From an uncultured Pseudomonadota bacterium (GTDB taxonomy: Bacteria; SAR324; NAC60-12), in NCBI GenBank assembly GCA_964344035.1, contig CAYFLK010000011.1, positions 339 to 64,338 of the forward strand: a stretch of DNA of 64,000 nucleotides, written 5' to 3'. The number at the start of each line of letters is the position of its first letter. Within the stretch, counting starts at the first letter, position 1. The notes beneath the pieces were generated by a model. The model worked only from the letters and a program-made list of their open reading frames with translations. It made no database searches and was not told the origin of the DNA. This document shows positions 40,714-56,443 of the stretch, piece after piece. Both the position numbers and the translations under genes were made by a program.

Positions 40714-42096
40714 ATGAAGATTACGCTCCCGAGGCTGATGATTTCCGCAACCCACAAAAGCGCGGGCAAAACTACGCTCAGTCTGGGTTTGCTTAGTCAG
40801 TTCAGGGAAGCGGGTATGAAGCTCGGGGCATTCAAAAAAGGTCCGGACTACATTGACCCGATGTGGCTGCGTCGGGCCTGCGGGCGGGAGTGTTACAACC
40901 TGGACCCGTTTCTTATGCAAGAGGAAGGCTGCATCGATTCCTTTGTGCGCAACACTTCAGGTTGCGATGCAGCGCTGATCGAAGGCAATCACGGTCTTCA
41001 TGACGGCATGGCCCTGGACGGTTCGAACAGCAGCGCCGGTCTGGCCTCCGGCCTGAATCTTCCTGTCCTGCTGGTAGTCGACAGCCGTGGAATGAACCGC
41101 GGCGCAGCGGCGGTTGTCATCGGAATGCAGCAGATGCAGCCCCGGGTCCGGATTGCAGGGGTGGTGCTCAACCGTACAAAGAGCAAACGGCAGGAAGACA
41201 AGCAGCGACTTGCCATTGAACACCACTGCGGCATTCCCGTGCTGGGAGCAATCAGGGATGAACAGGCGGTTGCCATCAAAGAACGTCATCTGGGTTTGAC
41301 CACTGTGGAAGAAACAGGTGAAGCGGACCGGATAATTCAAGATGCATCCGAACTTGTTGCTCAGACCTGTGACATCGACGCGATACGTTCCCTGTTCAAT
41401 GAAGCGCCTCCATTGGAAAACTTAAGCATTGTTGCCGGCAGAAATCCAGTTGAGGAAAAGGTCCGGATTGGGGTGTTTCGTGACGCGGCCTTCTGTTTTT
41501 ACTATCCGGATAACCTGCAGGCCCTGCGTGACCAGGGCGCGAGCCTGGTTTTCATCGATTCGCTGCACGACCGGTCCCTGCCGGAACTGGACGGGCTGTA
41601 TATCGGGGGAGGGTTCCCGGAATCATTTTTTTCACAACTTGGCGACAATAAAGGCCTGATCAGCGACCTGCGGGAACTGGTCCGTGGTGGAATACCCCTG
41701 TATGCTGAATGCGGTGGACTGATCTACCTCTGCGAATCCGCCCATTATCAAGGACAAAAGCACAAACTGGCTGGAGTGCTTCCGTACGAAATCGGGTTCA
41801 ATAAACGGCCGCTCGGCTACGGATATATAGATCTCGAAAGCAAGCGCGAGAGCCGCTGGTTCGGCAAACAGGCAAGGTTCAAAGCCCATGAGTTCCATTA
41901 CTCGAAACCGATCGGGCAGGGATCTCGCGGCACATACCAATTCAACGTAATCAGGGGGTATGGCATCAACGGCAAGAAGGATGGAATCCTGAAGCGGAGT
42001 GTGTTTGCTTCCTATGCTCATTTGCATGCCCTAGCCACTCCGGTTTGGGCGAAAAGTTTTGTCGGTCTCGCGCAGGAATACAGCGCCCATGCATGA
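40714..42096 (+). CDS. dsrN: cobyrinic acid a,c-diamide synthase homologue DsrN (siroheme amidase)
   Basis: 460 aa. CbiA/CobB N-terminal ATPase (ISATHKSAGKTTLSLGLL) plus a C-terminal glutamine amidotransferase domain (GGFPE, C at LYAECGGLIYL). It heads the dsr cluster. Confidence 0.8.
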   Translation: MKITLPRLMISATHKSAGKTTLSLGLLSQFREAGMKLGAFKKGPDYIDPMWLRRACGRECYNLDPFLMQEEGCIDSFVRNTSGCDAALIEGNHGLHDGMALDGSNSSAGLASGLNLPVLLVVDSRGMNRGAAAVVIGMQQMQPRVRIAGVVLNRTKSKRQEDKQRLAIEHHCGIPVLGAIRDEQAVAIKERHLGLTTVEETGEADRIIQDASELVAQTCDIDAIRSLFNEAPPLENLSIVAGRNPVEEKVRIGVFRDAAFCFYYPDNLQALRDQGASLVFIDSLHDRSLPELDGLYIGGGFPESFFSQLGDNKGLISDLRELVRGGIPLYAECGGLIYLCESAHYQGQKHKLAGVLPYEIGFNKRPLGYGYIDLESKRESRWFGKQARFKAHEFHYSKPIGQGSRGTYQFNVIRGYGINGKKDGILKRSVFASYAHLHALATPVWAKSFVGLAQEYSAHA

Positions 42097-42160
42097 AGAT
42101 GCCCGCTTAACGGCATCATGGGGCAATGCCTGTGTAAGACTGCTTCCGACTTTTGCAGTG

Positions 42161-42231
42161 GAATGGTTTTGGAAATAGTCAGCGATAGTTTCGTTGTCGT
42201 CGGGAGGTGCTCGACCCTTTCCAAAACCATT
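42161..42231 (+). promoter_or_regulatory. perfect 14-bp inverted repeat AATGGTTTTGGAAA ... TTTCCAAAACCATT in the dsrN-dsrC intergenic leader
   Basis: Read directly. A ~43-nt loop separates the arms. It lies 75 nt upstream of the dsrC start. It is either an operator or an mRNA stem. Confidence 0.45.
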
Positions 42232-42305
42232 TGCACGGCAAGAGGCCCAATAAATTTCCAGGCACAATGCCGGGGATGTTTTTTAACACAACCAAGGAGT
42301 AAGCC

Positions 42306-42641
42306 ATGACACTTGAACTGGATGGAAAAACCTATGACACCGATGAAAACGGTTACCTGCTCAATCTATCGGATTGGACCAGTGACCTCGCCGGACAACT
42401 GGCGAAGCTGGAGCATATTGATATGACGGAAAAGCACTGGGAAATCGTCAATTTCCTGAGGAATTACTACGAGGAGTACCAGATTGCTCCGGCGGTGAAG
42501 GTGCTGACCAAGGAAATAGCGAAACTGAACGACATCAAACGGAAAGAGGCTTCAACATTCCTCTATGATCTTTTTCCCAAGGGACCAGCGCTGCAGGCCT
42601 GCAAAATTGCCGGCTTGCCCAAACCAACTGGCTGTGTCTGA
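42306..42641 (+). CDS. dsrC: dissimilatory sulfite reductase gamma subunit / sulfur-carrier DsrC
   Basis: 111 aa. The C-terminus CKIAGLPKPTGCV has the two DsrC cysteines 10 residues apart, with the second cysteine penultimate. TusE/DsrC fold. Confidence 0.9.
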   Translation: MTLELDGKTYDTDENGYLLNLSDWTSDLAGQLAKLEHIDMTEKHWEIVNFLRNYYEEYQIAPAVKVLTKEIAKLNDIKRKEASTFLYDLFPKGPALQACKIAGLPKPTGCV

Positions 42642-42803
42642 ATTTCCGCAACAAGGTGGACTGCCGGACGGAGTTTTTTCTCAAAATCCGATCCGCCGTG
42701 ATTTATTCAGGCCAAAAGCTGAAGGCGGCGTCATCCGGATGAGGCGGAAGCCGACTCCGGCGTTTACTCTCAAAACCCTTATTCAAAAACGGAAGAGGTA
42801 ATT

Positions 42804-44045
42804 ATGGAAGTGGCAGAACAAAGCGGAACCGAAGCTGAAGCGAAAACGCAGGAACAGGACGATAAGTTCCTTAACCCAACACCTATGCTGGATGAACTGG
42901 AGGAAGGCCCATGGCCAAGCTTCATCACAGGGCTCAAGGAACTTGCCGAACGTACAAAGAAACCGATGCTTCGCGGGGTGATGGACCAGCTCGAATATTC
43001 TTACCAGACCAGAATGGGATACTGGAAAGGCGGACTGGTTACCGTGGAGGGTTATGGGGGAGGGATAATCGCCCGTTATTCCATGGTCAAAGACAAGATC
43101 CCGGAAGCCTCTGAGTTTCACACTTTTCGTGTGCAGGCGTCTCCGGGGCTGGTCTACAACACCAAGGCGCTGCGCAAACTCTGCGACATCTGGGAGGAAC
43201 ATGGATCCGGACTGATTGCATTGCACGGACAAACCGGGGACGTGATGCTTCAGGGCATCAAGGACACCGAGACCCAGGCGTGTTTTGACGAAATCAACCA
43301 GGCAGGCTGGGACATGGGCGGCGCGGGCGCTGGAATGCGTACCGGCGTTTCCTGCATCGGCCAGGCCCGCTGTGAACAGGCCTGTTACGACACTCTCAAA
43401 ATGCATGAGCGTGTGATGAAGGAATATGTAAGCGATGTCCACCGCCCGGAATTCAACTACAAGTTCAAGTTCAAGTTCTCCGGATGTCCAAACGATTGCA
43501 CGAACGCGATTTTTCGGTCAGATTGCGCGGTGATCGGAATGTGGCGCGATTCCATCCAGATTGACAAACAAGCCGCAAAAGCCTGGATTGAACAGAAAGG
43601 AATGGACAATCTGGTCAACAACGTTATCAGCCGTTGTCCCACCAAAGCGATAACTCTTAAGGACGGTGAACTCGAGATAGACAACAAAAATTGTGTACGC
43701 TGCATGCACTGCCTGAATGTCATGCCCAAAGCCCTATCTCCCGGGAAAGAACGGGGAATTGCGGTGCTCCTTGGGGGGAAAAACATCCTCAAGGTAGGCG
43801 CCATGGGCGGAACAATGGTAGTGCCCTTCATGAAGATGGAAACCGACGAAGACATCGAGGAATTCATCGAGCTGATGGACAACGTGATGGAGTGGTGGGA
43901 TGACAACGGTCTTGACCACGAACGGCTCGGAGAAACGCTTGAACGGGTCGGCCTGAAACATTTTCTTGATGCAATGGACTTGGAGCCGACTGCCGACATG
44001 GTCGCCCATCCGCGGACAAACCCCTATTTCAAAGCCGCCTACTAA
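42804..44045 (+). CDS. dsrA: dissimilatory sulfite reductase alpha subunit
   Basis: 413 aa. Sirohaem-[4Fe-4S] Cys clusters (CIGQARCEQAC) and a ferredoxin insert (CPNDCTNAI, CVRCMHC). Followed by dsrB. Confidence 0.9.
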   Translation: MEVAEQSGTEAEAKTQEQDDKFLNPTPMLDELEEGPWPSFITGLKELAERTKKPMLRGVMDQLEYSYQTRMGYWKGGLVTVEGYGGGIIARYSMVKDKIPEASEFHTFRVQASPGLVYNTKALRKLCDIWEEHGSGLIALHGQTGDVMLQGIKDTETQACFDEINQAGWDMGGAGAGMRTGVSCIGQARCEQACYDTLKMHERVMKEYVSDVHRPEFNYKFKFKFSGCPNDCTNAIFRSDCAVIGMWRDSIQIDKQAAKAWIEQKGMDNLVNNVISRCPTKAITLKDGELEIDNKNCVRCMHCLNVMPKALSPGKERGIAVLLGGKNILKVGAMGGTMVVPFMKMETDEDIEEFIELMDNVMEWWDDNGLDHERLGETLERVGLKHFLDAMDLEPTADMVAHPRTNPYFKAAY

Positions 44046-44076
44046 TTAACCATCGACCCAAATTCAGGAGAGTACC

Positions 44077-45153
44077 ATGGCCATTGAACGAGCATGGAAA
44101 ACGGTTGAATCCGGACCGTATGACTACCAGGAAGGCCTTCATCCGGTTATCGTAAAGAACTACGGGAAATGGGCCTATCATGAGGAACCGAAACCCGGGG
44201 TCTTGAAACATGTTGCTGAAAACGGAGACGTTCTCTGGACGGTCCGTGCCGGCACGCCCCGTCAGGATTCCGTGGATTTCGTGCGCAGGCTCTGCGATGT
44301 CGCGGACAAGTACGCAGACGGCTTTCTGCGTTTCACCGTGCGCAGCAACGTAGAATACATGACCCCCGATGAAGACAAAGTGCAGCTGCTGATTGATGAG
44401 CTGGAAGGAATGGGACTGCCGGTGGGAGGGACCGGTCCTTCGGTCTCCCAGGTCGCCCACACCCAGGGATGGCTGCATTGCGACATACCCGCTTCGGACG
44501 CATCCGGAGTGGTGAAATCAATGATGGACGCGCTCATAGACGATTTCAAATCCATGCGCATGCCTAACCGGGTGAAACTGGTCACCCAGTGCTGTGAACT
44601 TAACTGCGGTGGGCAGGGCGACATATCGATCATTGTCAAACACACCCGCCCGCCGCGCATCAACCACGAAATCCTCGGAGAAGTCTGTGAACTTCCCAAG
44701 GCCGTCGCCCGCTGTCCGGTGGCCGCGATTCGCCCGACGGTTGTCAACGGCAAGCGTTCGCTGATGGTTGACGAAGAGAAATGCATGTACTGCGGCGCCT
44801 GCTTCGGGGCCTGCCCGGCAATGGAAATCAATCATCCGGAACATTCTAAATTTGCCGTCTGGGTTGGCGGAAAGAACTCGAACGCGCGCAGCAGACCTTC
44901 CCTCGGATACCTGGTGGCCCACAACCTGCCCAACAATCCTCCGCGCTGGCCCGAGATCAACGATGTGGTCAAACGCATCCTTGAAGCCTACAGAAACGGC
45001 GGCCGCCACTGGGAACGCCTGGGTGAGTGGATCGACCGCATCGGCTGGAAGAACTTTTTTGCGGAAACCGGTCTGACCTTCGACGAGGACATGATCGACA
45101 ATTACCGTCACGCGCGGACGACCTTCAACCAGTCCGCACATGTTCGATTCTAA
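44077..45153 (+). CDS. dsrB: dissimilatory sulfite reductase beta subunit
   Basis: 358 aa. Motifs CCELNCGGQGD and CPVAAI, CMYCGACFGACP are the DsrB cluster and ferredoxin motifs. Confidence 0.9.
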   Translation: MAIERAWKTVESGPYDYQEGLHPVIVKNYGKWAYHEEPKPGVLKHVAENGDVLWTVRAGTPRQDSVDFVRRLCDVADKYADGFLRFTVRSNVEYMTPDEDKVQLLIDELEGMGLPVGGTGPSVSQVAHTQGWLHCDIPASDASGVVKSMMDALIDDFKSMRMPNRVKLVTQCCELNCGGQGDISIIVKHTRPPRINHEILGEVCELPKAVARCPVAAIRPTVVNGKRSLMVDEEKCMYCGACFGACPAMEINHPEHSKFAVWVGGKNSNARSRPSLGYLVAHNLPNNPPRWPEINDVVKRILEAYRNGGRHWERLGEWIDRIGWKNFFAETGLTFDEDMIDNYRHARTTFNQSAHVRF

Positions 45154-45168
45154 CGGAAGGAGCAGGTC

Positions 45169-46965
45169 ATGACCACCAAAACCATTGAATCCAATCCGAT
45201 CCTCGATTTCGCGGAGGCTTACGAGTTCCCTGAGTTTAATGAAGAAAAAGGAACAAAAAAAGTTGTCGCTTTCGGAGATCAGAGCCACAAATGCCCGGTT
45301 TACCTCCGGCAGGAGCCGCCTTGCAACGAAGGATGTCCGGCGGGGAACGACATCCGCGCCTGGCTGACGATCGTCCAGCAGACGGAATTGAAGAAGCGCG
45401 GCTGGGAGGAATCCTATGAACTGCTGTGGCGGGAAGTTAGCAAAACCACCCCCCTGCCCGCGGTCTGCGGACGTGTCTGTCCACATCCCTGTGAACCGGT
45501 ATGCAACCGTAATGAAAAAGAAGGAGCGGTGAACATCAATGCCTACGAACGCTGGATCGGGGATTATGCCATCCAGCACGGGCTTGATCATGAGAAGCTT
45601 ACCAATGAGGTGAAACCCCAGAAAATAGCGGTCGTCGGGTCCGGACCGGCCGGGTTGAGCTGCGCGTTTCAAATGGCGCGGCGTGGGTACCCGGTGACCA
45701 TCTTCGAATCATTCGATAAACCCGGAGGCATGCTGCGTTACGGCATTCCCCCCTACCGCCTGCCGCGCGACATCATCGATGCGGAGGTGGCTGCGATTGA
45801 AAGAATGGGGGTGGATATCCGTTGCAACACTGTCATTGGCGAGGACATCAGCCTCGATGATTTGAAAGCCGAATATGATGCAGTCTTCCTCGGAATCGGC
45901 GCCCACAAGGGTATTTCACTGGGTTTCGACGGAGAAGACGCATCGAATGTGATGAGCGGAGTCGAGTTTCTTAATCGGGTCAATGCCGGCGAGATGATGG
46001 AAGTGGGAAATAATGTGGTGATCATCGGAGGGGGCGATACGGCGATTGACGCCGCCCGCGTTTCCCTCCGGCTCAGTGCATTGGACGGTGGGCAGGCAGT
46101 TTTCGACGCCGCCCGGGTCTCACGGCGGCTGGGTGCGAAAGTGACCATTCTATACCGGCGCACCCGCGAAGAGATGCCGGCCATCGACAGGGAGGTAGAC
46201 GAGGCCCTCGAAGAAAACATTGATATCCAGTACCTCTCCGCGCCGGTAGCTATCCGCACTGAAAACGGCAAGGCGGTGGCGGTTAAATGCCTGCGCATGG
46301 AACTGGGGGAGCCTGATGAAAGCTGCCGCCGCCGCCCGGTCCCGATTGAAGGATCGGAATTCGAGGTTGAATGCAGCACCCTCATCCCGGCTGTCAGCCA
46401 AGAACCTGACTGGCGGGACGCCGATAGATACGTCAGCGGCAAAAACTGGCTGAATCCCGGAGCTGACGGGACGGTTGAAGAGGGGGTCTATGCGGGTGGG
46501 GATGCCATCGAGCTGGGATTGGCGTGTATTGCCATCGGCAATGGCCGCAAGGCCGCTGAACAGATGCATGCCAAGTTTTCCGGAGAACAACCGCCCCGGA
46601 CGCAATGGGTGAAAACAGTCCCTCATGAGAAGCTGCGCCTGGAACATTATGCGTCGTGTGAACGCAACAAACGCGGATACCTTTCTCCCGAAGAAAGGTT
46701 GGCGGGTGGACTTGATCTCGAAATCGACAAGGGTATCAGCGAAGAACAGTTCAGGGAAGAAGCCGGACGCTGCATGAGCTGCGGCCTGTGTTTCGAGTGC
46801 TATGAGTGCATGATGTTCTGTCCGCAGACTGCGATTACCAGGTTTACGGAGAATCCTGTCGGCGAAGTGATGTACACCTATTACAACAAATGTGTTGGAT
46901 GTCATCTCTGCGCGGTAGTATGTCCCTGTAATTATATCCAGATGGGTATGTCCGATGAACTCTGA
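45169..46965 (+). CDS. dsrL: DsrL, NAD(P)H:acceptor oxidoreductase (glutamate-synthase small-subunit-like, with C-terminal ferredoxin domain)
   Basis: 598 aa. N-terminal Fe-S Cys motif (CPVYL..CNEGCPAGN). FAD motif KIAVVGSGPAGLSCA. NAD(P) motif VVIIGGGDTAIDAARV. C-terminal CMSCGLCFECYEC..CPQ / CVGCHLCAVVCPC. Confidence 0.8.
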   Translation: MTTKTIESNPILDFAEAYEFPEFNEEKGTKKVVAFGDQSHKCPVYLRQEPPCNEGCPAGNDIRAWLTIVQQTELKKRGWEESYELLWREVSKTTPLPAVCGRVCPHPCEPVCNRNEKEGAVNINAYERWIGDYAIQHGLDHEKLTNEVKPQKIAVVGSGPAGLSCAFQMARRGYPVTIFESFDKPGGMLRYGIPPYRLPRDIIDAEVAAIERMGVDIRCNTVIGEDISLDDLKAEYDAVFLGIGAHKGISLGFDGEDASNVMSGVEFLNRVNAGEMMEVGNNVVIIGGGDTAIDAARVSLRLSALDGGQAVFDAARVSRRLGAKVTILYRRTREEMPAIDREVDEALEENIDIQYLSAPVAIRTENGKAVAVKCLRMELGEPDESCRRRPVPIEGSEFEVECSTLIPAVSQEPDWRDADRYVSGKNWLNPGADGTVEEGVYAGGDAIELGLACIAIGNGRKAAEQMHAKFSGEQPPRTQWVKTVPHEKLRLEHYASCERNKRGYLSPEERLAGGLDLEIDKGISEEQFREEAGRCMSCGLCFECYECMMFCPQTAITRFTENPVGEVMYTYYNKCVGCHLCAVVCPCNYIQMGMSDEL

Positions 46966-46985
46966 TCCCCTTTCAGGAGACTCAC

Positions 46986-47351
46986 ATGTATGAAAAACTG
47001 ATCGGCATGGTCGAAGATGCAGTTGATCTTTCCCGCCGCTGGGCCCAGTCAGGCTGGAAGACACGCTTTGGCGAGCGTGGGGTGGAAGCCTGTTCTCTCT
47101 CAGAGGCCCTGGACCTTCCACCCAATTTTGTCTATCGTGAGGAAGCCGTCGATTACTGGACCCAGGTGCAGATGATTGGCAGCGATGCGGCCGAATCCGG
47201 GAAAAAAGCGATTGAGGCCTTAAAAAACGGGGACCTTAAGCGTGCCGAGGATTCTGTTTATTTCTCAATGTACATTGAAAAACCCTATGCGCCCAACAGC
47301 AAAACCTGGAAGCCGGTGTACGAGGCAGTCAAACAGGAGATGAACGGATAG
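46986..47351 (+). CDS. hypothetical protein embedded in dsr cluster
   Basis: 121 aa and soluble, with no recognisable motif. RBS GGAGA upstream. It occupies the dsrL-tusA gap. Confidence 0.5.
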   Translation: MYEKLIGMVEDAVDLSRRWAQSGWKTRFGERGVEACSLSEALDLPPNFVYREEAVDYWTQVQMIGSDAAESGKKAIEALKNGDLKRAEDSVYFSMYIEKPYAPNSKTWKPVYEAVKQEMNG

Positions 47352-47464
47352 GTCGATAGTTAAAAAGACAAAAACCTCTTTGTTCCATAAGCAGGTGAAG
47401 TCCGTTTTATGGATCGAACCGCCTGGGTGTTCCCAACTATTTAACCAAAAAAAGGAGACTATAT

Positions 47465-47704
47465 ATGAGTGAGGAAATCAAATTTGACCAGGAACTCGAC
47501 TGCAGCGGACTTTCCTGTCCCCTGCCGGTCCTGAAAACCAAAAAAGCAATTAATACCCTCAATTCCGGCGATGTGCTTAAGGTGATTTCCACCGATCCCG
47601 GATCGAACAAGGATATGCCTTCATGGAGCAAACGCACCGGCAACCCGATCCTCAAGACCGAGGATCAGTCGGGGGCCTTCATTTTTTACATCCAGCGCAA
47701 ATGA
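47465..47704 (+). CDS. tusA: TusA-family sulfurtransferase
   Basis: 79 aa. LDCSGLSCPLPVLKTKKAI has the CPxP persulfide-carrying motif. RBS AAGGAGA upstream. Confidence 0.85.
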   Translation: MSEEIKFDQELDCSGLSCPLPVLKTKKAINTLNSGDVLKVISTDPGSNKDMPSWSKRTGNPILKTEDQSGAFIFYIQRK

Positions 47705-47728
47705 GCACCTGACCTCACTGGGACAAGC

Positions 47729-48088
47729 ATGAAATTTGGAATACTTATCAAAGAAGGCCCCTACACACACCAGGCATCCGACAGCGCCTTCCGCTTTGTC
47801 AGGACCGCCCTTGAAAAGGGACACACGATCGAGGGGGTGTTCTTGTACAACGACGGCGTTAACAATGCAACCAAACTGATGGACCCTCCCCAGGACGACC
47901 GACACCTGTCAAATCTCTGGTCCGAACTCGGTGGTGAATTGGGAGACGAAATCATGGTCTGTATTGCCGCCGCAAAACGACGGGGGATTGTGGAGGAGGT
48001 GATCCCGAAAAACACATCCATCACAGGTTTGGGGGAGTTGACCGACTTGACCATCCGTGCTGATCGCCTGGTCACTTTTGGAGATTGA
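47729..48088 (+). CDS. dsrE: DsrE (sulfur relay protein, DsrEFH complex)
   Basis: 119 aa. MKFGILIKEGPYTHQAS.. is the DsrE/TusD fold. The conserved active Cys lies in IMVCIAAAKRRG. Confidence 0.85.
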   Translation: MKFGILIKEGPYTHQASDSAFRFVRTALEKGHTIEGVFLYNDGVNNATKLMDPPQDDRHLSNLWSELGGELGDEIMVCIAAAKRRGIVEEVIPKNTSITGLGELTDLTIRADRLVTFGD

Positions 48089-48092
48089 TGCC

Positions 48093-48482
48093 ATGGAAGA
48101 GTACGATTACGACGATGACGAAATAGTAAAGAAGATCATGCATGTCATGCGGCGTGCCCCGCACGGCACAATCTATACCTATGAAGGATTGGAAATGATC
48201 CTCATCATGGCATCCTACGATCAGGACATCACCGTCGTCTTCATTGACGACGGGGTGTATGCGCTGAAAAAGGACCAGGACACCAGCGCTATCGGCATCA
48301 AAGGATTTGCGAAAACATTCCTGGCTCTGGACGGGTACGATGTTGAGAAGCTTTATGTCGATCAGCAGTCACTGGAGGAGCGGGGACTGACGGAAGATGA
48401 CCTTGTGGTGCCGGTAGAAGTTATGAGTGCCGAAGAAATCGGCAGATTGATGACCGAACAGGACGAGGTGATCCATCACTGA
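48093..48482 (+). CDS. dsrF: DsrF (sulfur relay protein)
   Basis: ATG at 48093 follows GGAGA. 129 aa, TusC/DsrF-like. The ORF track extends it to 48057, overlapping dsrE. Confidence 0.75.
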   Translation: MEEYDYDDDEIVKKIMHVMRRAPHGTIYTYEGLEMILIMASYDQDITVVFIDDGVYALKKDQDTSAIGIKGFAKTFLALDGYDVEKLYVDQQSLEERGLTEDDLVVPVEVMSAEEIGRLMTEQDEVIHH

Positions 48483-48556
48483 AGTTCCATCAGTTAATCT
48501 GAAGCAAGTCGCTTCCGTGACCTGTTTGTTCTAAAACCCGTATTGGATGGATTCCG

Positions 48557-48850
48557 ATGCTTCACACCATCAATAAATCCCCTTTTACATCAAATACATT
48601 TGAAACATGTCTTCGTTTTCTGCGGTCCGGGGATCCGGTATTGTTCTATGAAGACGGCGTCTACACCGTGCAGACTTCCCACAAGTTTTCCGGGAGGATA
48701 GCAGAGCTGCAGGCATCCAACCCGGTATTCGCCCTGAAGCCCGACCTCGAAGCTAGGGGGATTGCTGACACTGTTGAGGGAGTAACCCTGATTGACTACG
48801 GAGGTTTTGTTGATCTCGTCGAAGAACACACAGTCAACAGCTGGCTGTGA
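48557..48850 (+). CDS. dsrH: DsrH (sulfur relay protein)
   Basis: 97 aa. Conserved N-terminal Cys in TCLRFLRSGD. TusB/DsrH size. Confidence 0.8.
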   Translation: MLHTINKSPFTSNTFETCLRFLRSGDPVLFYEDGVYTVQTSHKFSGRIAELQASNPVFALKPDLEARGIADTVEGVTLIDYGGFVDLVEEHTVNSWL

Positions 48851-48902
48851 GGAGGCATAGAAAACGCTGATAATTATTTCCGGCTTTTGGCTGGGAGAGA
48901 AA

Positions 48903-49529
48903 ATGAGTGACGCACTGAATTACCTGCTAAAAGCCCGTCCCGAGGCAATGGGCTCTTATTTTGCCTTCCTCAAACAGGCGGGTACGCATCTCGATCAACG
49001 ATCACGTGACTTGATTTCGGTGATCACCAAGGTGGCCGTGCAGACCGAATCAGGTTTTCGGCAATATCTCTCACGCGCGTTGCGCAACGGCTGTACGTCT
49101 GATGAAGTGTTGGATGCGCTGCTGATGGCGTTTCCGGTGCTCGGGCTGGCAAAAATCACCTGGGCAGTGGAGATAATTCTTGAAATGGACATACCGGAGT
49201 TTCGTCAGGAAGGGCTTGACGCAAAACCGGAATGGCGCTCAGTCAGCAGCCTCGAAGAAATTCCGTTCGGGGAGGCGGCCTATTACGAGGTAGATAACCG
49301 GCAGGTGTTCGTTTTTCGTACTGAGGATGAAATTCGTGTTTATGACAGCCGCTGTCCGCACCAGGTAACCAACATCCCCCATCTCGCCCTGGAGGGCACA
49401 CGTTTGACCTGCCCCAAGCACCAGTGGGCATTTGACATTCAAAGCGGTGAATGCATAGACAAGGGGCGGCTTCCACTGCGGAGTTTTGAATGCAGGGAGG
49501 AAAACGGGCAGCTGCAAGCATACTGGTAA
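48903..49529 (+). CDS. fusion protein: AhpD-like carboxymuconolactone-decarboxylase-family domain + Rieske [2Fe-2S] domain
   Basis: 208 aa. The N-terminal ~100 aa are an AhpD/CMD-family helical fold. The C-terminus CPHQVTN...(17 aa)...CPKHQW is the Rieske CxH..CxxH motif. Confidence 0.6.
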   Translation: MSDALNYLLKARPEAMGSYFAFLKQAGTHLDQRSRDLISVITKVAVQTESGFRQYLSRALRNGCTSDEVLDALLMAFPVLGLAKITWAVEIILEMDIPEFRQEGLDAKPEWRSVSSLEEIPFGEAAYYEVDNRQVFVFRTEDEIRVYDSRCPHQVTNIPHLALEGTRLTCPKHQWAFDIQSGECIDKGRLPLRSFECREENGQLQAYW

Positions 49530-49596
49530 CCCTGTCCATCTGCAATTTGCTGACGCTGCAATACAGCTCGGGCAGCGCATGAAGGAATGTAAGTTA

Positions 49597-50976
49597 ATGG
49601 AACAGCTTCCGGTTTTTATGAATCTGCGCGGCCAATCCTGTCTGGTTGCCGGGGAAGAAAATAAAGCCTACCACAAAATCCTCCTCCTGCTAAAAGCAGA
49701 AGCCAGGGTTTATCTGCTCACCCAATCGCCCTGCCGGAGAATACGCGAATTGTTTCATCAAAACCGTCTGGTTTCCGTGGATGAACCACTTGAGAAACTT
49801 GAACTGAGCCGTTTTCGACTGGTGATCTGCGCTTCAGAAAATTCAGCACTCAACGAGTTGCTGGCAAGAAGGGCGATGGAACTGAACATCCCGGTCAACG
49901 TGGTGGATCAGCCTGATCTCTGCACCTTCACCATTCCCTCGATCGTGGACCGTTCACCGCTGATCGTCGCGGTTTCTTCCAGTGGCAAATCCCCGACCCT
50001 TTCCAAGTTCGTGCGCAGGAAGATCGAAGCTCTGCTGCCCCACACCTATGGTCCACTGACCGAGATGCTGGGGAATTTCCGCAAACAGACCCGGAACCGC
50101 ACAAGCGACTATTCTGAAAAAAAACGTTTTTGGGAACGCCTGCTATCCGGGCCTCTTGTCGATCTCTTCCTTTCCGGGAAGGAACAGACCGCGCGGGATG
50201 TGATGCAGCATGAACTAGAACAAGCATCAAAACCTGAAAAACGTGGACAGGTCGTGCTTGCCGGCGCAGGTCCGGGCGACCCGGAGTTGCTTACCCTGCG
50301 CGCTCTGCGACACATTCAAAACGCGGACGTGATTGTCTATGACCGCCTGGTTTCAAGTCCGGTACTTGACTATGCAAATCCGGACGCCGAAATGGTGTAT
50401 GCGGGCAAGAAGACCGGGGACCACTACCTTTCGCAACAGGATATCAACCGCAAACTGATACGGCTGGCACAGGAAGGCAAATCCGTGGTTCGTCTCAAGG
50501 GAGGAGATCCATTTATTTTCGGACGCGGAGGGGAGGAACTGGAGGAGTTGATGGATGCCGGGATCGATTTCCAGGTCATCCCCGGCATCACTGCCGCCGG
50601 GGGATGCTGCGCCTATGCCGGGATCCCCCTCACTCACCGCGATTTTGCCCAGTCAGTCGTGTTTGTCACTGCCCACGGCAGGGATGAAGAACTTGAGTTG
50701 AACTGGGAAAGCCTGACCCAGCCGAACCAGACCTTGGTTTTTTACATGGGCCTTGCCAATGCCGAACTGGTAAGCCGCGGTCTGATCACACACGGACTTC
50801 CCGCCGACACCCCGGCCGCACTTGTGCAGAACGGGACCACCTTCAACCAGAAAGTTGCCGTCGGCAATATTGAAACGCTTCCGCGACTGATCCAAGAGCA
50901 GGGTTTCCAGCGTCCGACACTGATCATAGTAGGACATACCGTGACCCTGCATGAGAAGCTGCAGTGGTACAACTGA
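49597..50976 (+). CDS. cysG: siroheme synthase (CysG-like: precorrin-2 dehydrogenase/ferrochelatase + uroporphyrinogen-III C-methyltransferase)
   Basis: Start ATG 49597 (MEQLPVFMNLRGQSCLVAGEENKA). N-terminal NAD Rossmann. C-terminal SUMT motif VVLAGAGPGDPELLTLRA..DVIVYDRLV. Confidence 0.8.
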   Translation: MEQLPVFMNLRGQSCLVAGEENKAYHKILLLLKAEARVYLLTQSPCRRIRELFHQNRLVSVDEPLEKLELSRFRLVICASENSALNELLARRAMELNIPVNVVDQPDLCTFTIPSIVDRSPLIVAVSSSGKSPTLSKFVRRKIEALLPHTYGPLTEMLGNFRKQTRNRTSDYSEKKRFWERLLSGPLVDLFLSGKEQTARDVMQHELEQASKPEKRGQVVLAGAGPGDPELLTLRALRHIQNADVIVYDRLVSSPVLDYANPDAEMVYAGKKTGDHYLSQQDINRKLIRLAQEGKSVVRLKGGDPFIFGRGGEELEELMDAGIDFQVIPGITAAGGCCAYAGIPLTHRDFAQSVVFVTAHGRDEELELNWESLTQPNQTLVFYMGLANAELVSRGLITHGLPADTPAALVQNGTTFNQKVAVGNIETLPRLIQEQGFQRPTLIIVGHTVTLHEKLQWYN

Positions 50977-51002
50977 ACTACGTCTAATAACGGACCCGGG
51001 AC

Positions 51003-51500
51003 ATGAGCGAAATTCACCACTTCCTCAGGGAAAACCGGGAAGCAGTGCTGGATCAATGGCTCACCAGCGCCTTCAAAATGTTCCCCGAACAGTCCAGGCT
51101 GCTTATGGTCAGCAATCCGGACCCGTTCACCAGCCCCATCCGTCATGCGCTCAGCAAGGGTATGGCGCAACTGCTGGACCGGTTTTGTGTAGAAGAACCC
51201 ATAACCGGGGGAAAAGAGCTTGAGGAACTCGGGCGGCTCCTTGCGGTTCAGGAGATGCCGCCCTCCCAGTCCCTTCCCTTCATTTTTGAATTGAAAACCG
51301 TGGTCCGGAAACTTGCAGGGAAAAATAATAAACGCTCCGGATTCTCCGACAGGGACTGGGATGAATTTCAGGACCGGCTTGAGCAGGTGCTTTTCCATCT
51401 GTTCGATTGTTATCTGAAACATCGAGAAAAGATATACCAACTGAAAGCCGAAGAAATGAAGCAACGGACATACATGCTGCTTAGGAGGGCCACCCAATGA
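51003..51500 (+). CDS. dsrT: DsrT-like protein (RsbRD N-terminal-like domain)
   Basis: 165 aa, helical. Its position immediately before dsrMKJOP matches dsrT in other dsr loci. FLRENREAVLDQWL is a globin-sensor/RsbR N-like start. Its stop overlaps the dsrM start (ATGA). Confidence 0.5.
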   Translation: MSEIHHFLRENREAVLDQWLTSAFKMFPEQSRLLMVSNPDPFTSPIRHALSKGMAQLLDRFCVEEPITGGKELEELGRLLAVQEMPPSQSLPFIFELKTVVRKLAGKNNKRSGFSDRDWDEFQDRLEQVLFHLFDCYLKHREKIYQLKAEEMKQRTYMLLRRATQ

Positions 51501-52489
51501 AAGCAATCGCCCCATTGTTAACGGTTTTGGCAATCGCGCTGCTGGCGTATCTTGGCGCGGGAGTAGCCGGGCTAACCGGCCTGTTTGGAATCGTCATTCC
51601 CTATCTTTCGTTTGCACTTTTCATAGGCGGCTTCGTGTACCGCATCTTTGACTGGGCTGGCTCGCCGGTGCCGTTTCGCATTCCGACCACTGCCGGACAG
51701 TCTCGTTCGCTCGACTGGATCCGCCAAGACAAACTGGAAAGTCCGTCCGGGTTCTGGGGAGTGACGGGCCGTGTGTTGCTTGAAGTGCTGCTGTTCCGTT
51801 CACTCTTCCGTAACACCAAGGCGGAAATCACCGCCGGTCCAAACCTCGCCTACGGTTCAAGCAAGTGGCTTTGGCTAGGCGGGCTGGCGTTTCACTGGTC
51901 GATGCTGATCATTGTCCTACGCCATTACCGTTTTTTTCTGGCGCCGATTCCGGGGTTTCTGGAAGCGCTGGATGCGGCGGACGGTTTTCTCCAGATCACC
52001 CTGCCGGCCTTTTACCTAACCGATCTGGTGTTCGTGGCCGCTGTCACATACCTGTTCGCGCGCAGACTGGTGGACGCGAAAATAAATTACATTTCCCTGG
52101 CCAGTGATTTCTTTCCGCTCTACCTGCTGTTGGGCATCGCGCTGAGCGGCATCTGGATGCGTTACTTCGACAAGGTCGATGTCGCGCAAGTAAAGCTGCT
52201 GATGCAGAGCCTGATTGCCTTCAGCCCGGAACTTCCGGGACCAATCGGCTGGATGTTCTATGTCCACCTGTTCATGGTATGCGTGCTTGCCGCGTATTTC
52301 CCGTTCAGTAAACTGATGCACATGGGCGGCATCTTCCTCAGCCCAACTAGAAACCTGGCAACCAACAGCCGTGAATACAGACACGTCAACCCATGGAATC
52401 CTCAGATAAAAATACGCACTTACAGAGAATACGAGGACGAATTCCGCGAAAAAATGAAAAAAGCGGAACTGCCGATTGAAAGGGGATGA
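51497..52489 (+). CDS. dsrM: DsrM, NarI-like dihaem cytochrome b membrane subunit
   Basis: 330 aa. Five transmembrane helices with conserved His in helices 2 and 5. It overlaps dsrK by 4 nt. Confidence 0.8.
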   Translation: MKAIAPLLTVLAIALLAYLGAGVAGLTGLFGIVIPYLSFALFIGGFVYRIFDWAGSPVPFRIPTTAGQSRSLDWIRQDKLESPSGFWGVTGRVLLEVLLFRSLFRNTKAEITAGPNLAYGSSKWLWLGGLAFHWSMLIIVLRHYRFFLAPIPGFLEALDAADGFLQITLPAFYLTDLVFVAAVTYLFARRLVDAKINYISLASDFFPLYLLLGIALSGIWMRYFDKVDVAQVKLLMQSLIAFSPELPGPIGWMFYVHLFMVCVLAAYFPFSKLMHMGGIFLSPTRNLATNSREYRHVNPWNPQIKIRTYREYEDEFREKMKKAELPIERG

Positions 52490-54132
52490 ACATGACCACA
52501 AACCCACCACCAGTTGCAGAACTGGAAAAATCCATCGAGGAAACTCAGAATCTCCTCAAAGACCGCCGCCCTCCCGGGGAATGGCCGGATCTGCCCGTGA
52601 AGGTTGAAGAGGGCAAATGGTGCTACCCGGCGAAACCGGAAATTCTTGAAAGACACGGTTTCCCAAACCCGAGGAAGTGGGATGTTGAAGAGGCGGACTG
52701 GCAGCTTCCGGACAACTGGGAGGAAATCATCTTTGAAGGGATGCGTGAACGGCTTAAAAAATTCCGTTCGTTCAAACTGTTCATGGATGTCTGTGTACGC
52801 TGCGGAGCATGCGCGGACAAGTGCCATTTCTTTCTCGGCACCGGCGACCCGAAAAACATGCCGGTGCTGCGCGCTGAACTGCTCCGTTCAGTATACCGAG
52901 GGGAATTTACGCTGGCGGGGAAGTTTCTGAAGGAAATGGTCGGCGCGCGGAAGCTGACCAAGGAGGTGATCAAGGAGTGGTTTCTTTATTTCCATCAATG
53001 CACCGAGTGCAGGCGGTGCTCGGTTTACTGCCCGTTTGGCATCGATACCGCGGAAATCACTATCCTCGGGCGTGAACTGCTGCACCTGGTGGGCGTCAAC
53101 ATCAACTGGATCCTTGAACCTGCGGCTAACTGCAACCGCACGGGCAATCACCTCGGCATCGAACCGCATACTTTCAAACAGGTGGTGGAATCCCTTGTCG
53201 AAGATATCGAAGACCTTACCGGTATCGAGGTCGAACCAACTTTCAACCGCAAAGGCGCCGAAATCCTCTTTATCACTCCCTCCGGAGATTTGTTTGCCGA
53301 TCCCGGAGTGTACACGATGATGGGATACATGCTCCTCTTTCACCACATCGGACTCGATTACACCCTCAGCACCTATGCTTCCGAAGGCGGGAATTTCGGG
53401 CTCTTTACTTCGCATGACACGATGAAGAAACTCAACGCAAAGATGTTTCATGAAGCTGAGCGATTGGGAGTCAAATGGATCCTGGGTGGGGAGTGTGGGC
53501 ACATGTGGCGTGTGGTGCACCAGTACATGGACACAATGAACGGTCCGGCGGATTTTCTGGAAGAACCGGTTTCCCCGATCACCGGCACCCGGTTCCGAAA
53601 TGCGGCATCGACAAGAATGGTGCATATCGCGGAATTCACTGCTGACCTGATACACCAGGGTAAGCTCAAGCTGGACCCGAGAAGGAATGATCATATAGTC
53701 TCCACCTTCCATGATTCATGCAACCCCGCCAGGGCGATGGGAATGCTTGAGGAGCCTCGGTATGTGCTGAGGAACGTTTGCAACAACTTCCATGAAATGC
53801 CCGAGAACACGATCCGGGAACATACTTTCTGCTGCGGCGCGGGAAGCGGTCTGAACACCGACGAGTTCATGGATACACGGATGCGTGGAGGATTCCCACG
53901 AGCGAACGCTGTCAGACACGTGCAGGAAAAGCATGATGTAAACGCGCTGGTAAACATCTGTGCCATTGATCGCGCCACTTTGCCTCCCCTGATGAAATAC
54001 TGGGTGCCGGAAGTCTCTGTATACGGCCTTCACGAACTGGTCGGCAATGCGCTGGCGATGGATGGAGAGGAAGAGCGGACCGAAGACCTGCGCGAGGATG
54101 AAATGGTTGAATTCGAGGAGGAAGATGAATGA
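52486..54132 (+). CDS. dsrK: DsrK, HdrD-like Fe-S protein with CCG domains
   Basis: 548 aa. Ferredoxin Cys motifs CVRCGACADKC and CTECRRCSVYCPFG. Cys-rich CCG regions FHDSCNPAR and FCCGAGSG. Confidence 0.85.
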   Translation: MNMTTNPPPVAELEKSIEETQNLLKDRRPPGEWPDLPVKVEEGKWCYPAKPEILERHGFPNPRKWDVEEADWQLPDNWEEIIFEGMRERLKKFRSFKLFMDVCVRCGACADKCHFFLGTGDPKNMPVLRAELLRSVYRGEFTLAGKFLKEMVGARKLTKEVIKEWFLYFHQCTECRRCSVYCPFGIDTAEITILGRELLHLVGVNINWILEPAANCNRTGNHLGIEPHTFKQVVESLVEDIEDLTGIEVEPTFNRKGAEILFITPSGDLFADPGVYTMMGYMLLFHHIGLDYTLSTYASEGGNFGLFTSHDTMKKLNAKMFHEAERLGVKWILGGECGHMWRVVHQYMDTMNGPADFLEEPVSPITGTRFRNAASTRMVHIAEFTADLIHQGKLKLDPRRNDHIVSTFHDSCNPARAMGMLEEPRYVLRNVCNNFHEMPENTIREHTFCCGAGSGLNTDEFMDTRMRGGFPRANAVRHVQEKHDVNALVNICAIDRATLPPLMKYWVPEVSVYGLHELVGNALAMDGEEERTEDLREDEMVEFEEEDE

Positions 54133-54505
54133 GCGTGTATTGATTTTCGGGGGACTGGCAATCTTCCTGCTGTTGGTCCTGTTCCCGTTCTGGCCGGACT
54201 CCGAACGCCACGCAAACCAGCCGCCGGCTCTGGCCATCAACACTGTGAAGGAGCAGTGCGTAGCTCCCACTGAGTTCATGCGAGCAAACCACATGCAGCT
54301 GCTCGATCAGTGGCGCGACGATGTGGTCCGCCGCGGGGAACGGGTGCATATCACCACGGACGGACGGACATTTGAAAAAAGCCTGACCCATACCTGCCTA
54401 AACTGTCACGAAAACAGGGAGATGTTTTGTGAGCAGTGCCATGGCACACTGAATGTACAGACCTATTGCTGGGAATGCCACGTCACCCCCATGGAGGTCC
54501 AATGA
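54125..54505 (+). CDS. dsrJ: DsrJ, periplasmic trihaem cytochrome c
   Basis: ATG 54125 ([17 protein letters not shown], a signal anchor). Three CxxCH motifs (CLNCH, CEQCH, CWECH). It overlaps the dsrK stop. Confidence 0.85.
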
Positions 54506-55272
54506 AAAATGAAAAACGCAGGGATTTCCTGAGAAAAACGGGTCTTGGCGCGCTTGCCGGGATTGGTGTGGCGGCGGGTCTAACCGCGCGGAAACAGGCT
54601 GAAGCGGAAAGTGCATCTGAAGTGCACCGGGCGGGCAAAGTGCGCTGGGGAATGGTAGTCGATGCACGGAAATGCCCGGACGAATGCACGAAATGCATTG
54701 ATGCATGTCACCTGGGCCACAACGTTCCGGAGTTTGATAACTCCAAAGACGAGATAAAGTGGGTCTGGAAAGCTCCGCGTGAAAAGGTTTTTCCCAGCAA
54801 GAGCATGCAGTTCTCGTCAAAACAGCAACGGCAACTGCCAATTCTCACCCTGTGCAACCACTGCGCGAACCCTCCCTGCACCCGCGTATGCCCGACTCAG
54901 GCGACTTTCAAACGCTGGGACGGAATCGTGCAGATGGATTTCCACCGCTGCATAGGCTGCCGTTTCTGCATGGCGGCCTGTCCTTACGGGTCACGCAGTT
55001 TCAACTGGCGGGATCCAAGGCCTGCGATCGGAAAAATAAATCCGGAATTTCCCACCCGGGAACGCGGGGTGGTTGAAAAATGCAACTTCTGCGTGGAAAG
55101 GCTGGAAAAGAAGAAACTCCCGTTGTGCGTGGAAAGCTGTCCGGAAAAAGCGCTGACGTTCGGGAACCTCAATGATCCGGATTCCGGAATCCGAAAAACT
55201 CTCCGGGAAAACCAGACCATCCAGCGCAAGCCTGAACTCGGGACCCGCCCTTCCGTCTTCTACATAACATGA
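54502..55272 (+). CDS. dsrO: DsrO, periplasmic ferredoxin-like 4Fe-4S subunit with Tat signal
   Basis: ATG 54502. Twin-arginine motif [16 protein letters not shown]. Four Cys clusters (CxxCxxx[35 protein letters not shown]...C). It overlaps the dsrJ stop (ATGA). Confidence 0.85.
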
Positions 55273-55279
55273 GGGAGCC

Positions 55280-56443
55280 ATGATTGAAAACGCACTCAAG
55301 GGAAACCGGCAATACTGGGGGCTTATCACGCTGCTCACGCTGCTGGTGCTGTTGGGCGTGCTTGCCTACAGCAGGCAACTGTCCGAGGGTTTGACAATTA
55401 CCGGCATGAGCAGGGATGTCAGCTGGGGAATTTACATTGCCCAGTTCACTTTCCTGGTCGGGGTCGCCGCCTCGGCGGTGATGGTAGTGCTCCCGTACTA
55501 TCTTCATGATTACAAGGAATTCGGAAAGGTGGTCCTGCTGGGGGAATTCCTCGCGGTGTCGGCGGTGACGATGTGCCTGATGTTCATCTTTGCAGACATG
55601 GGGAAACCCGAACGGGCGCTGAACATTATTTTCTATCCCAGTCCCAAATCGATCCTGTTCTGGGACATGATTTCACTCAGCGGATACCTGCTGCTCAACC
55701 TGGTGAGTGCGTGGGTGGTGCTCACCGCGGAAAGCAAGGGGGTGCCGCCGCCGGGTTGGATCAAACCGGTGATTTTCCTTTCCATCCCCTGGGCAGTCAG
55801 CATCCACACCGTCACTGCTTTCATCTATGCGGGTCTTCCCGGGCGTCACCTCTGGCTGACAGCGGTGCTTGCCCCGCGTTTTCTCGCTTCCGCTTTCTGT
55901 GCCGGACCGGCACTGCTGATCCTGCTGAGTCTTCTGCTGTGCAAATTCGCGAGTTATGACATTGGCGACAAGGCTATCCGCAAGCTGGCGGTGATTGTCA
56001 CCTATGCGGGAGTGATAAATTTCTTCCTGGTCGGGATGGAGTTTTTCACCGCCTTCTACAGCAGCATCCCCTCTCACATGCACGGATTGCAGTATCTCTT
56101 CGTCGGTTTAGAAGGCGGGAGCAATCTTGTGCCGTGGATCTGGTTTTCATTCATTATCGGCATCCTGTCAGTATTAATTCTCCTGTTTCCCAGTTTGCGC
56201 GCCGACACTCCATGGTTGGCATGGGCCTGCGCGGGGTTGTTCGTGTCGCTTTGGATCGACAAAGGGATCGGCTTGATCCTGGGAGGTTTTGTTCCCACGC
56301 CGATGGAAGAAGTGGTGGAATATACCCCGAGTTTCCTTGAATTAATCATCACTCTCGGCATCTGGGCTTTTGGTTTTCTCGTCCTCTCCATATTTTACAA
56401 AACCGTCATCAGCATCAAGCGCCGGAACCTCGGCGTAACCTGA
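55280..56443 (+). CDS. dsrP: DsrP, NrfD/PsrC-like integral membrane quinone-interacting subunit
   Basis: 387 aa with ~10 transmembrane helices. NrfD-family fold. Confidence 0.8.

Follow-up and report, generated by a model that had tools for sequence, protein, structure and literature searches.

A CMD-like/Rieske fusion gene between dsrH and cysG

The window that we analysed, a stretch of 64,000 nucleotides of SAR324 DNA, carries a co-directional dsr cluster (Table 1) in which dsrN, dsrC, dsrA, dsrB, dsrL, an ORF encoding an unknown protein of 121 aa (hyp), tusA, dsrE, dsrF and dsrH are followed by a gene that joins a carboxymuconolactone decarboxylase (CMD)-like domain to a Rieske domain, and then by cysG, a gene for a DsrT-like RsbRD_N protein, dsrM, dsrK, dsrJ, dsrO and dsrP. 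The start of cysG was fixed using gene calls on identical contigs and orthologs. According to an earlier note on this DNA, the fusion gene lies between dsrH and a siroheme synthase gene; this was confirmed, and all three genes are on the same strand.

Table 1. Coordinates of the fusion gene, of its domains and motifs, and of neighbouring genes in the window.
Feature	Position	Strand	Basis
Whole co-directional cluster, dsrN to dsrP	40714-56443	+	
tusA	47465-47704	+	Pfam and NCBIfam
dsrE	47729-48088	+	Pfam and NCBIfam
dsrF	48093-48482	+	Pfam and NCBIfam
dsrH (52-nt gap to the fusion gene)	48557-48850	+	Pfam and NCBIfam
Shine-Dalgarno-like GGGAGAG, 3 nt 5' of the ATG	48893-48899	+	sequence reading
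CMD-like/Rieske fusion gene, 208 aa, stop codon included in the span	48903-49529	+	ORF list, Pfam, homologs, dN/dS ~0.1
AhpD/CMD-fold helical domain, residues 13-91, better-conserved half	48939-49175	+	
Degenerate active-site motif T48-E-S-G51-F-R-Q54-Y55, at the place of the AhpD C-x-x-C-x-x-x-H	49044-49067	+	alignments to 3bey, 7y4r, 1vke
Rieske [2Fe-2S] ferredoxin-type domain, residues 110-205	49230-49517	+	
Rieske box I, C151-P-H153, predicted cluster ligands	49353-49361	+	sequence; invariant in all alignments
Rieske box II, C170-P-K-H173, predicted cluster ligands	49410-49421	+	sequence; invariant in all alignments
cysG, siroheme synthase, ATG at 49597 (67-nt gap after the fusion gene)	49597-50976	+	NF007922, 570 bits

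The fusion ORF is confirmed as a real gene, far beyond what chance would produce. It starts with an ATG, and its homologs, which number in the thousands, begin with MSDALNYL and are 206-208 aa long, which backs both the start codon and the length of the ORF. With a dN of ~0.17, a dS of at least 1.5 or saturated and a dN/dS of ~0.1, it is under strong purifying selection. The product would be a soluble protein of ~23 kDa.

Scans for promoters and terminators, which give weak evidence, found + strand sigma-70-like sites 5' of the fusion gene only before dsrN (40286 and 40601) and a further + strand promoter-like site within dsrK (53672), while the sole terminator-like site near the gene was a weak one in the dsrF-dsrH interval (48508). 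When the 160 nt 5' of the gene were scanned for k-mers in 78 loci, only RBS-like (GCAGGAGA) and -10-like (GCGGATAAT) words were found, and no operator-like motif. The fusion gene is presumably co-transcribed with dsrEFH and cysG in SAR324.

The gene order of the window was also found in other SAR324 loci (L081-L086 and L107-L109), and the complete order from dsrN to dsrP, with the fusion gene in the same place, was identical in the window and around two other copies of the fusion protein: P0003 (75% identical, annotated as SAR324 and indexed in 341 blocks of the contig collection) and P0002 (76% identical). In all SAR324 loci, the fusion gene stands directly 5' of cysG. Between SAR324 lineages, the fusion proteins share 75-76% identity, as compared to 82-84% for DsrA/B, 80% for DsrC, 76-78% for DsrE/F, 62% for DsrH and 66-75% for CysG, and a neighbour-joining tree groups the three SAR324 copies together as one clade. 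That the fusion protein diverged like the core Dsr proteins and forms a single clade points to one ancestral arrangement that was stably inherited.

A Rieske ferredoxin domain joined to an AhpD fold without thiols

The fusion of an AhpD/CMD-family domain to a Rieske domain in a protein of 208 aa, as read from the sequence in the earlier note, was supported by Pfam, with scores above the cut-offs for both halves: CMD (PF02627) matched residues 13-91 with 30.9 bits (cut-off 23), Rieske (PF00355) matched residues 111-186 with 48.8 bits (cut-off 20.3) and Rieske_2 (PF13806) matched residues 110-205 with 34.8 bits (cut-off 27). In terms of fold, the CMD half is of the all-alpha AhpD type and the C-terminal half is a Rieske beta-sandwich.

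The CPH...CPKH signature that had been noticed in the C-terminal half is indeed present, in boxes that read CPHQVT and CPKHQWAF. The four predicted ligands (C151, H153, C170 and H173) are unchanged in all of 19 sequences with identities as low as 28%, and the spacer from H153 to C170 is 16 residues long, where ~15-17 are expected for a C-x-H ... C-x-x-H arrangement. High-potential Rieske proteins of the bc1/b6f type have disulfide-forming cysteines in C-T-H-L-G-C and C-P-C-H boxes, together with a Ser and a Tyr that hydrogen-bond to the cluster. Since these disulfide cysteines and the Ser/Tyr pair are absent from both boxes of the fusion protein, established knowledge places it with the low-potential ferredoxin type; judging from its sequence, the domain looks like a soluble low-potential ferredoxin, with predicted cluster binding and a predicted potential near -150 mV rather than at +150 mV or above. 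The only other invariant cysteine that is not a ligand is C184, which occupies a G-x-C position of the Rieske domain and is missing in several divergent members of the family. This G-x-C position is common in NirD-type Rieske proteins.

Both its HMM match and its fold place the N-terminal half in the CMD superfamily, but outside the AhpD functional subgroup. CMD proteins with a C-x-x-C-x-x-x-H active site read VRCDACTRRH (3bey), TRCDGCIGVH (7y4r) or LRCDDCIRYH (1vke), and the aligned segment of the fusion protein reads VQTESGFRQY, with T48, G51 and Y55 at the positions of the two cysteines and of the histidine. The conserved Cys/His motif of AhpD that the earlier note had suggested looking for, a redox-active C-x-x-C with a downstream His, is thus absent from the alignments of this half to the three structures. 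Compared to AhpD-type CxxC proteins (5DIK, 3BEY and 7Y4R), the fusion protein has Thr-x-x-Gly-x-x-Gln-Tyr where Cys-x-x-Cys-x-x-x-His stands, and in its absent thiols it resembles the gamma-CMD 2AF7 rather than AhpD, with no decarboxylase context around its gene. The sole cysteine of the domain, C64, is an alanine in most (gammaproteobacterial) orthologs, so that the ortholog alignments contain no conserved cysteine in this domain.

The degenerate motif is itself strongly conserved. T48, G51, Q54 and Y55 are invariant across the core family described below and G51 is also invariant in divergent members, while the pattern T-x-x-G-[FL]-[RK]-Q-Y, which is invariant in the core family, is largely retained down to ~30% identity. 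Together with T48, Q54 and Y55, the residues R12, D31, R35, D36, K43, E68, D71 and K84 make up an invariant surface of the CMD domain. Mean pairwise identity is 81% in the CMD half versus 62% in the Rieske half, and dN is ~0.09 versus ~0.23, with dS at least 1.4 or saturated. Since the CMD half is better conserved and has the lower dN, it must have a constrained function of its own that is not thiol redox chemistry, and the lack of a Cys pair excludes a thiol/disulfide relay via this domain. The CMD-like domain would probably serve in the recognition of a partner, in oligomerisation or as a site for a small ligand at the former AhpD active-site position.

Distribution and genomic context of the family

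When 5.8 billion proteins were searched, 4102 matches were returned; the best 120 share 68-76% identity with the fusion protein, range from 206 to 208 aa in length and without exception comprise both domains. Their annotations are generic, such as 'Rieske 2Fe-2S domain-containing protein', 'carboxymuconolactone decarboxylase' or 'nitrite reductase/ring-hydroxylating ferredoxin subunit/alkylhydroperoxidase...'. Since the better-conserved half is an AhpD fold without thiol chemistry, such annotations mislead, and 'AhpD-like' need not mean that redox-active cysteines are present. Among 1.84 billion representatives at 50% identity, an exhaustive search with HMMER detected no more than 36 clusters at E <= 1e-30, so that the family consists of one tight core and about a dozen divergent full-length clusters with 28-53% identity. 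In data with one genome per species, 168 loci were confirmed, and we took the best 80 of these (63-74% identity) for analyses of hosts and context. Altogether, the core orthologous family spans 63-76% identity at a fixed length.

Among the best 80 of the 168 loci, the named hosts are Sedimenticola/Sedimenticolaceae, Chromatiaceae/Chromatiales, Thioalkalivibrio, Thiohalomonadales, Thiotrichales, Thiogranum, Lamprocystis, Ca. Thiosymbion and the endosymbionts of vestimentiferan tubeworms, together with four Alphaproteobacteria (Kiloniellales and Rhodospirillales); the remaining hosts are MAGs labelled only as Gammaproteobacteria or Proteobacteria. Every specifically named host in this set is a sulfur oxidizer, and none of its 80 species is a Gammaproteobacterium of the Pseudomonas, enteric or Vibrio type. 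Sampling has thus so far apparently yielded the core family from SAR324 and from Gamma- and Alphaproteobacteria that oxidize sulfur, and from no other bacteria.

Outside SAR324, the surroundings of the gene are different. In tblastn searches with the Dsr proteins and the CysG of the window, none of the best 80 of 168 core-family loci had dsrEFH, dsrL, dsrMK or cysG within +/-6 kb, and no hem genes lay near the fusion gene in any of these 80 loci. A lack of dsr linkage in other genomes, which the earlier note had named as a refutation, therefore applies only in part, since the embedding is seen in three SAR324 lineages and in none of this outside sample. The dsr association is that of one lineage, complemented by the taxonomy of the hosts, and phylogeny confounds co-occurrence with dsr at the level of whole genomes. 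When flanking ORFs were clustered and then scanned against Pfam, the best 80 of 168 loci most often had, on the upstream side, ribF-ileS-lspA in 11-12 cases or a SpoU methylase in 8, and on the downstream side convergent genes for AmpD amidase, CBS, P-II, DUF1538 and AmpE/CobD-like proteins (15-23 loci); no recurrent co-directional or operon partner emerged from this clustering, which gave only neighbours with housekeeping functions or limited to particular lineages. One core-family copy with 75% identity (P0004) is monocistronic among unrelated genes.

Sulfur-related genes were nevertheless found near some copies, even if 72 of the 80 loci (best 80 of 168) have no such gene nearby. Five high-GC gammaproteobacterial MAGs carry a DsrA-like NIR_SIR gene 0.9-4.5 kb downstream of the fusion gene; in one locus (L029), this DsrA-like gene is followed by a convergent TauD-family gene instead of dsrB. 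A gene for a single-Cys TusE/DsrC-like protein adjoins the fusion gene in two loci that differ in its orientation (L003 and L077), and a gene for a larger DsrC-domain protein lies 1.2 kb away in another (L067).

Divergent members occur in heterogeneous contexts, showing that the fusion architecture as such is not bound to sulfur metabolism. One of them (P0166) sits in a cluster for assimilatory sulfur metabolism and sulfur carriers, with the order JAB-MoeZ(ThiS/ThiF/rhodanese)-x-CysM-CysO-CysH-fusion-PhyH, and another (P0161) overlaps by 4 nt with the start of a hemE-hemH-hemY operon. Others follow genes for an FNR-like reductase and a rubrerythrin/Ferritin_2 protein (P0150) or for a DUF455/AurF-like diiron protein (P0124), or precede a GAPDH gene (P0155), and three have uninformative neighbourhoods (P0122, P0127 and P0129). 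From a metagenome scan with a two-sequence alignment as the query, we took 43 loci with relatedness to P0161 and P0155. Genes of the hem, cysG, dsr or cysH kind were neighbours in none of them, and clustering of their flanking ORFs gave no recurrent operon partner.

Possible functions of the fusion protein

To our knowledge, the flow of electrons out of the oxidative Dsr pathway is incompletely mapped, both for the exchange between rDsrAB, DsrL, DsrC and DsrMKJOP and for the supply of the siroamide cofactor. SAR324 bacteria are among the most abundant lineages of the dark ocean, and the small, extremely conserved Rieske protein encoded in their dsr operon could be a missing carrier, a concrete proposal that can be tested. 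We give an even chance to the interpretation that the fusion protein is an accessory one-electron carrier of sulfur oxidizers that was taken into the dsr operon in SAR324. Its Rieske-type [2Fe-2S] cluster, the sole predicted redox centre, would then pass single electrons, and in SAR324 these may be exchanged with DsrL or with rDsrAB, which is a siroheme enzyme; alternatively, the protein may contribute to siroheme supply via CysG.

That the role of the protein is specific to Dsr is something that we propose tentatively, at clearly less than an even chance. It is the most plausible specific function because the position in the SAR324 operon is stable and because the core family is apparently confined to bacteria that oxidize sulfur; the sulfur-related genes that occasionally lie near other copies also argue for it, as does the location of one divergent member among genes of assimilatory sulfur metabolism. 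We find it somewhat unlikely that the whole family is a dedicated rDsr accessory, that is, a Rieske carrier whose AhpD fold without thiols would dock on rDsrAB/DsrL or on the siroheme-loading machinery, encoded off-operon in most Proteobacteria and needed for the efficient oxidation of stored sulfur. Genuine Dsr helper genes are often unlinked to dsr, an example being rhd-tusA-dsrE2 in Allochromatium.

The main rival explanation, that of a general redox or stress Rieske ferredoxin (acting, for example, in peroxide or iron metabolism) whose gene was inserted by chance between dsrH and cysG in the ancestor of SAR324 and has been hitch-hiking since, appears somewhat unlikely to us. It would account for the many core-family loci with housekeeping genes as the usual neighbours and no sulfur gene, for the monocistronic copy among unrelated genes and for the divergent members that adjoin reductase and rubrerythrin-type, diiron or GAPDH genes, but it does not easily explain why the position was kept in three SAR324 lineages across ~25% protein divergence, with no + strand promoter-like site and a single weak terminator-like site near the gene. 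The host range also speaks against such a general function, since all specifically named hosts among the best 80 of 168 loci are sulfur oxidizers and Gammaproteobacteria of the Pseudomonas, enteric or Vibrio type are absent, and the distance of most copies from dsr genes loses weight when many genuine Dsr helpers are unlinked as well. If the protein were not related to Dsr, it would still represent an abundant uncharacterised family, with thousands of entries named only 'Rieske domain protein' or 'carboxymuconolactone decarboxylase'. The immediate proximity of cysG in SAR324 raises another possibility, which we regard as quite unlikely: the protein might help siroheme or tetrapyrrole synthesis, by providing electrons or reduced iron to CysG or to another tetrapyrrole enzyme, or it might be a NirD-like partner of a siroheme enzyme. 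In NCBIfam, the Rieske half best matches NirD (TIGR02378; 46.9 bits, E 2.5e-12), which is the small subunit of NirBD, an assimilatory nitrite reductase that depends on siroheme, and the likeness extends to a fold match of the Rieske_2 type along the entire C-terminal half, to the G-x-C motif after box II and to the placement of the gene beside those of a siroheme enzyme system. The score is, however, far under the cut-off of 74.65, so that the fusion protein is not a NirD equivalog, and it differs from NirD by the CMD-like domain that is fused on and by having no nirB nearby. As for tetrapyrroles more generally, the overlap of one divergent member with hemE-hemH-hemY did not recur in the 43 related metagenome loci and was a one-off adjacency; the link therefore rests on SAR324 and a single contig, and the 80 core-family genome loci (best 80 of 168), with neither cysG nor hem genes nearby, also count against it.

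The earlier note had suggested, as one possibility, a relay that would re-reduce the thiols of DsrC or DsrEFH. An AhpD-like thiol/disulfide reductant of this kind, fed with electrons by the Rieske domain, is suggested by the membership of the N-terminal half in the CMD/AhpD family (Pfam) and by the adjacent dsrEFH genes, and it is extremely improbable: an AhpD-type disulfide relay is ruled out by the absence of the Cys pair, with T48, G51 and Y55 in place of Cys, Cys and His and with C64 not conserved, and the one other invariant cysteine outside the ligands, C184, lies in the Rieske domain and is lost in several divergent members. Also very unlikely, in our view, is a function as the ferredoxin of an unrecognised oxygenase system built around a diiron or Fe(II)/2-oxoglutarate enzyme, for instance TauD/DsrQ or PhyH. 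The closest structures are indeed ferredoxins of Rieske or diiron oxygenase systems, namely those of naphthalene dioxygenase (2QPZ) and 3-nitrotoluene dioxygenase (5BOK), T4moC (1VM9), which has the CPHQ box in common with the fusion protein, and BphF (1FQT), and in some lineages the gene has DUF455/AurF-like, rubrerythrin-type plus FNR-like reductase, PhyH or TauD-family (L029) neighbours. Unlike these ferredoxins, the fusion protein has an extra N-terminal AhpD-fold domain of 100 residues and a setting in sulfur oxidation rather than in aromatic catabolism, it has no oxygenase or reductase gene as a neighbour in SAR324, the window included, or in the majority of core-family loci, and its scores are far under the cut-offs of the named oxygenase-ferredoxin families in NCBIfam (HcaC, NF007422: 36.1 bits, cut-off 113; AndAb, NF041683: 35.2 bits, cut-off 150; MocE, TIGR02377: 28.1 bits, cut-off 136).

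When compared to the known accessory proteins of the dsr system (DsrL, DsrN, DsrT, DsrR/S, DsrQ and DsrU/V/W), the fusion protein is likewise encoded inside the dsr cluster, co-directionally and with conservation in its lineage. It shows no homology to any named Dsr protein family, since its matches in Pfam and NCBIfam are confined to CMD and Rieske families and no Dsr family model matches it, and neither a description nor a mention of the fusion gene was found in the literature that we searched, papers on dsr clusters included; in agreement with the earlier note, it is no named component of the Dsr system. The core family is abundant, highly conserved and unstudied, and its ties to sulfur oxidation via dsr are so far suggestive. 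DsrQ and DsrU, like the fusion protein, are without an assigned function (PMC6018796, PMC7596348), DsrQ being TauD-like and DsrU/V/W being unrelated to the fusion protein. A cluster type in 'Deltaproteobacteria' MAGs has been given as dsrNCABL-hyp-tusA-dsrEFH, with the next gene not mentioned (PMC7596348). Cultured carriers of the fusion gene include Thioalkalivibrio denitrificans and T. thiocyanodenitrificans, and both are among the 6 of 75 Thioalkalivibrio strains in which the rDsr pathway was found (PMC6382920).

DsrL types and gene content of the SAR324 dsr clusters

When the DsrL proteins of SAR324 dsr loci were compared, that of the window (598 aa) was found to share 79% identity with the one of L107 (597 aa) but only 38% with the 579-aa protein of L081. 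Judged from these sequences, DsrL type varies among SAR324 lineages. Because the remaining Dsr proteins keep 62-84% identity between these lineages, the comparison suggests that DsrL types have been exchanged in place.

The ORF downstream of dsrL in the window gave no match in Pfam or NCBIfam searches. Its position is kept across the remaining SAR324 dsr clusters, with a copy at 59% identity in L081 and a 123-aa gene as its counterpart in L107, and it corresponds to the "hyp" of the published dsrNCABL-hyp-tusA-dsrEFH arrangement (PMC7596348). The RsbRD_N-domain protein occupies the DsrT position, and its L081 counterpart is 50% identical. Past dsrP, a Pfam search with the 443-aa ORF returned no match; the matching position in SAR324 loci L081-L086 holds a Sulf_transp (YeeE/YedE-type) gene.

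Two start codons differ from those of mechanically called ORFs. For dsrF, the ORF at 48057-48482 (+) begins with GTG at 48057, which puts its first 32 nt inside dsrE; orthologs and gene calls on identical contigs lead us to favour ATG 48093 (129 aa). The same two sources place the true start of cysG at ATG 49597, not at TTG 49486.

Coordinates of the genes and ORFs compared in the window and in other loci
Feature	Location	Strand	Context
DsrL	window 45169-46965	+	compared with L081:4341-6080 and L107:5188-6981
121-aa ORF	window 46986-47351	+	flanked by dsrL and tusA
RsbRD_N-domain protein, 165 aa	window 51003-51500	+	immediately 5' of dsrM, overlapping its start
443-aa ORF	window 56797-58128	+	immediately 3' of dsrP
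DsrA-like NIR_SIR gene	L029:8076-9353		3' of fusion
TusE/DsrC-like gene	L003:6703-6999	-	directly adjoins fusion; Chromatiaceae MAG
TusE/DsrC-like gene	L077:5276-5587	+	directly adjoins fusion; Thiogranum MAG

Dsr-like genes beside the fusion outside SAR324

Five high-GC gammaproteobacterial MAGs (L008, L015, L019, L029, L059) carry, 0.9-4.5 kb 3' of the fusion, a DsrA-like NIR_SIR gene whose product is 54-58% identical to the window DsrA. In L029, dsrB is absent after this gene and a convergent TauD-family (DsrQ-like) gene stands there instead; the fusion and the DsrA-like gene are separated by DUF2269 and DUF3237 genes. Either a DsrA paralog standing alone or an assembly break may account for this.

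The TusE/DsrC-like proteins of L003 and L077 (~100 aa) end in GLPKPTGCV and lack the second (CysB) cysteine, and the orientation of their genes relative to the fusion differs between the two loci.

Divergent fusions in other contexts

The gene for P0161, a divergent fusion (34% identity), runs 4 nt into the beginning of a hemE-hemH-hemY operon (L097:7001-11022), an arrangement seen at none of 43 related metagenome loci. P0166, a second divergent CMD-Rieske fusion (35% identity), lies in L102:618-8522 in the order JAB, ThiS/ThiF/rhodanese (MoeZ-like), a 461-aa unknown, PALP (CysM), ThiS (CysO), PAPS_reduct (CysH), P0166 and PhyH, and this cluster is a locus of thiocarboxylate-type cysteine biosynthesis and sulfate assimilation.
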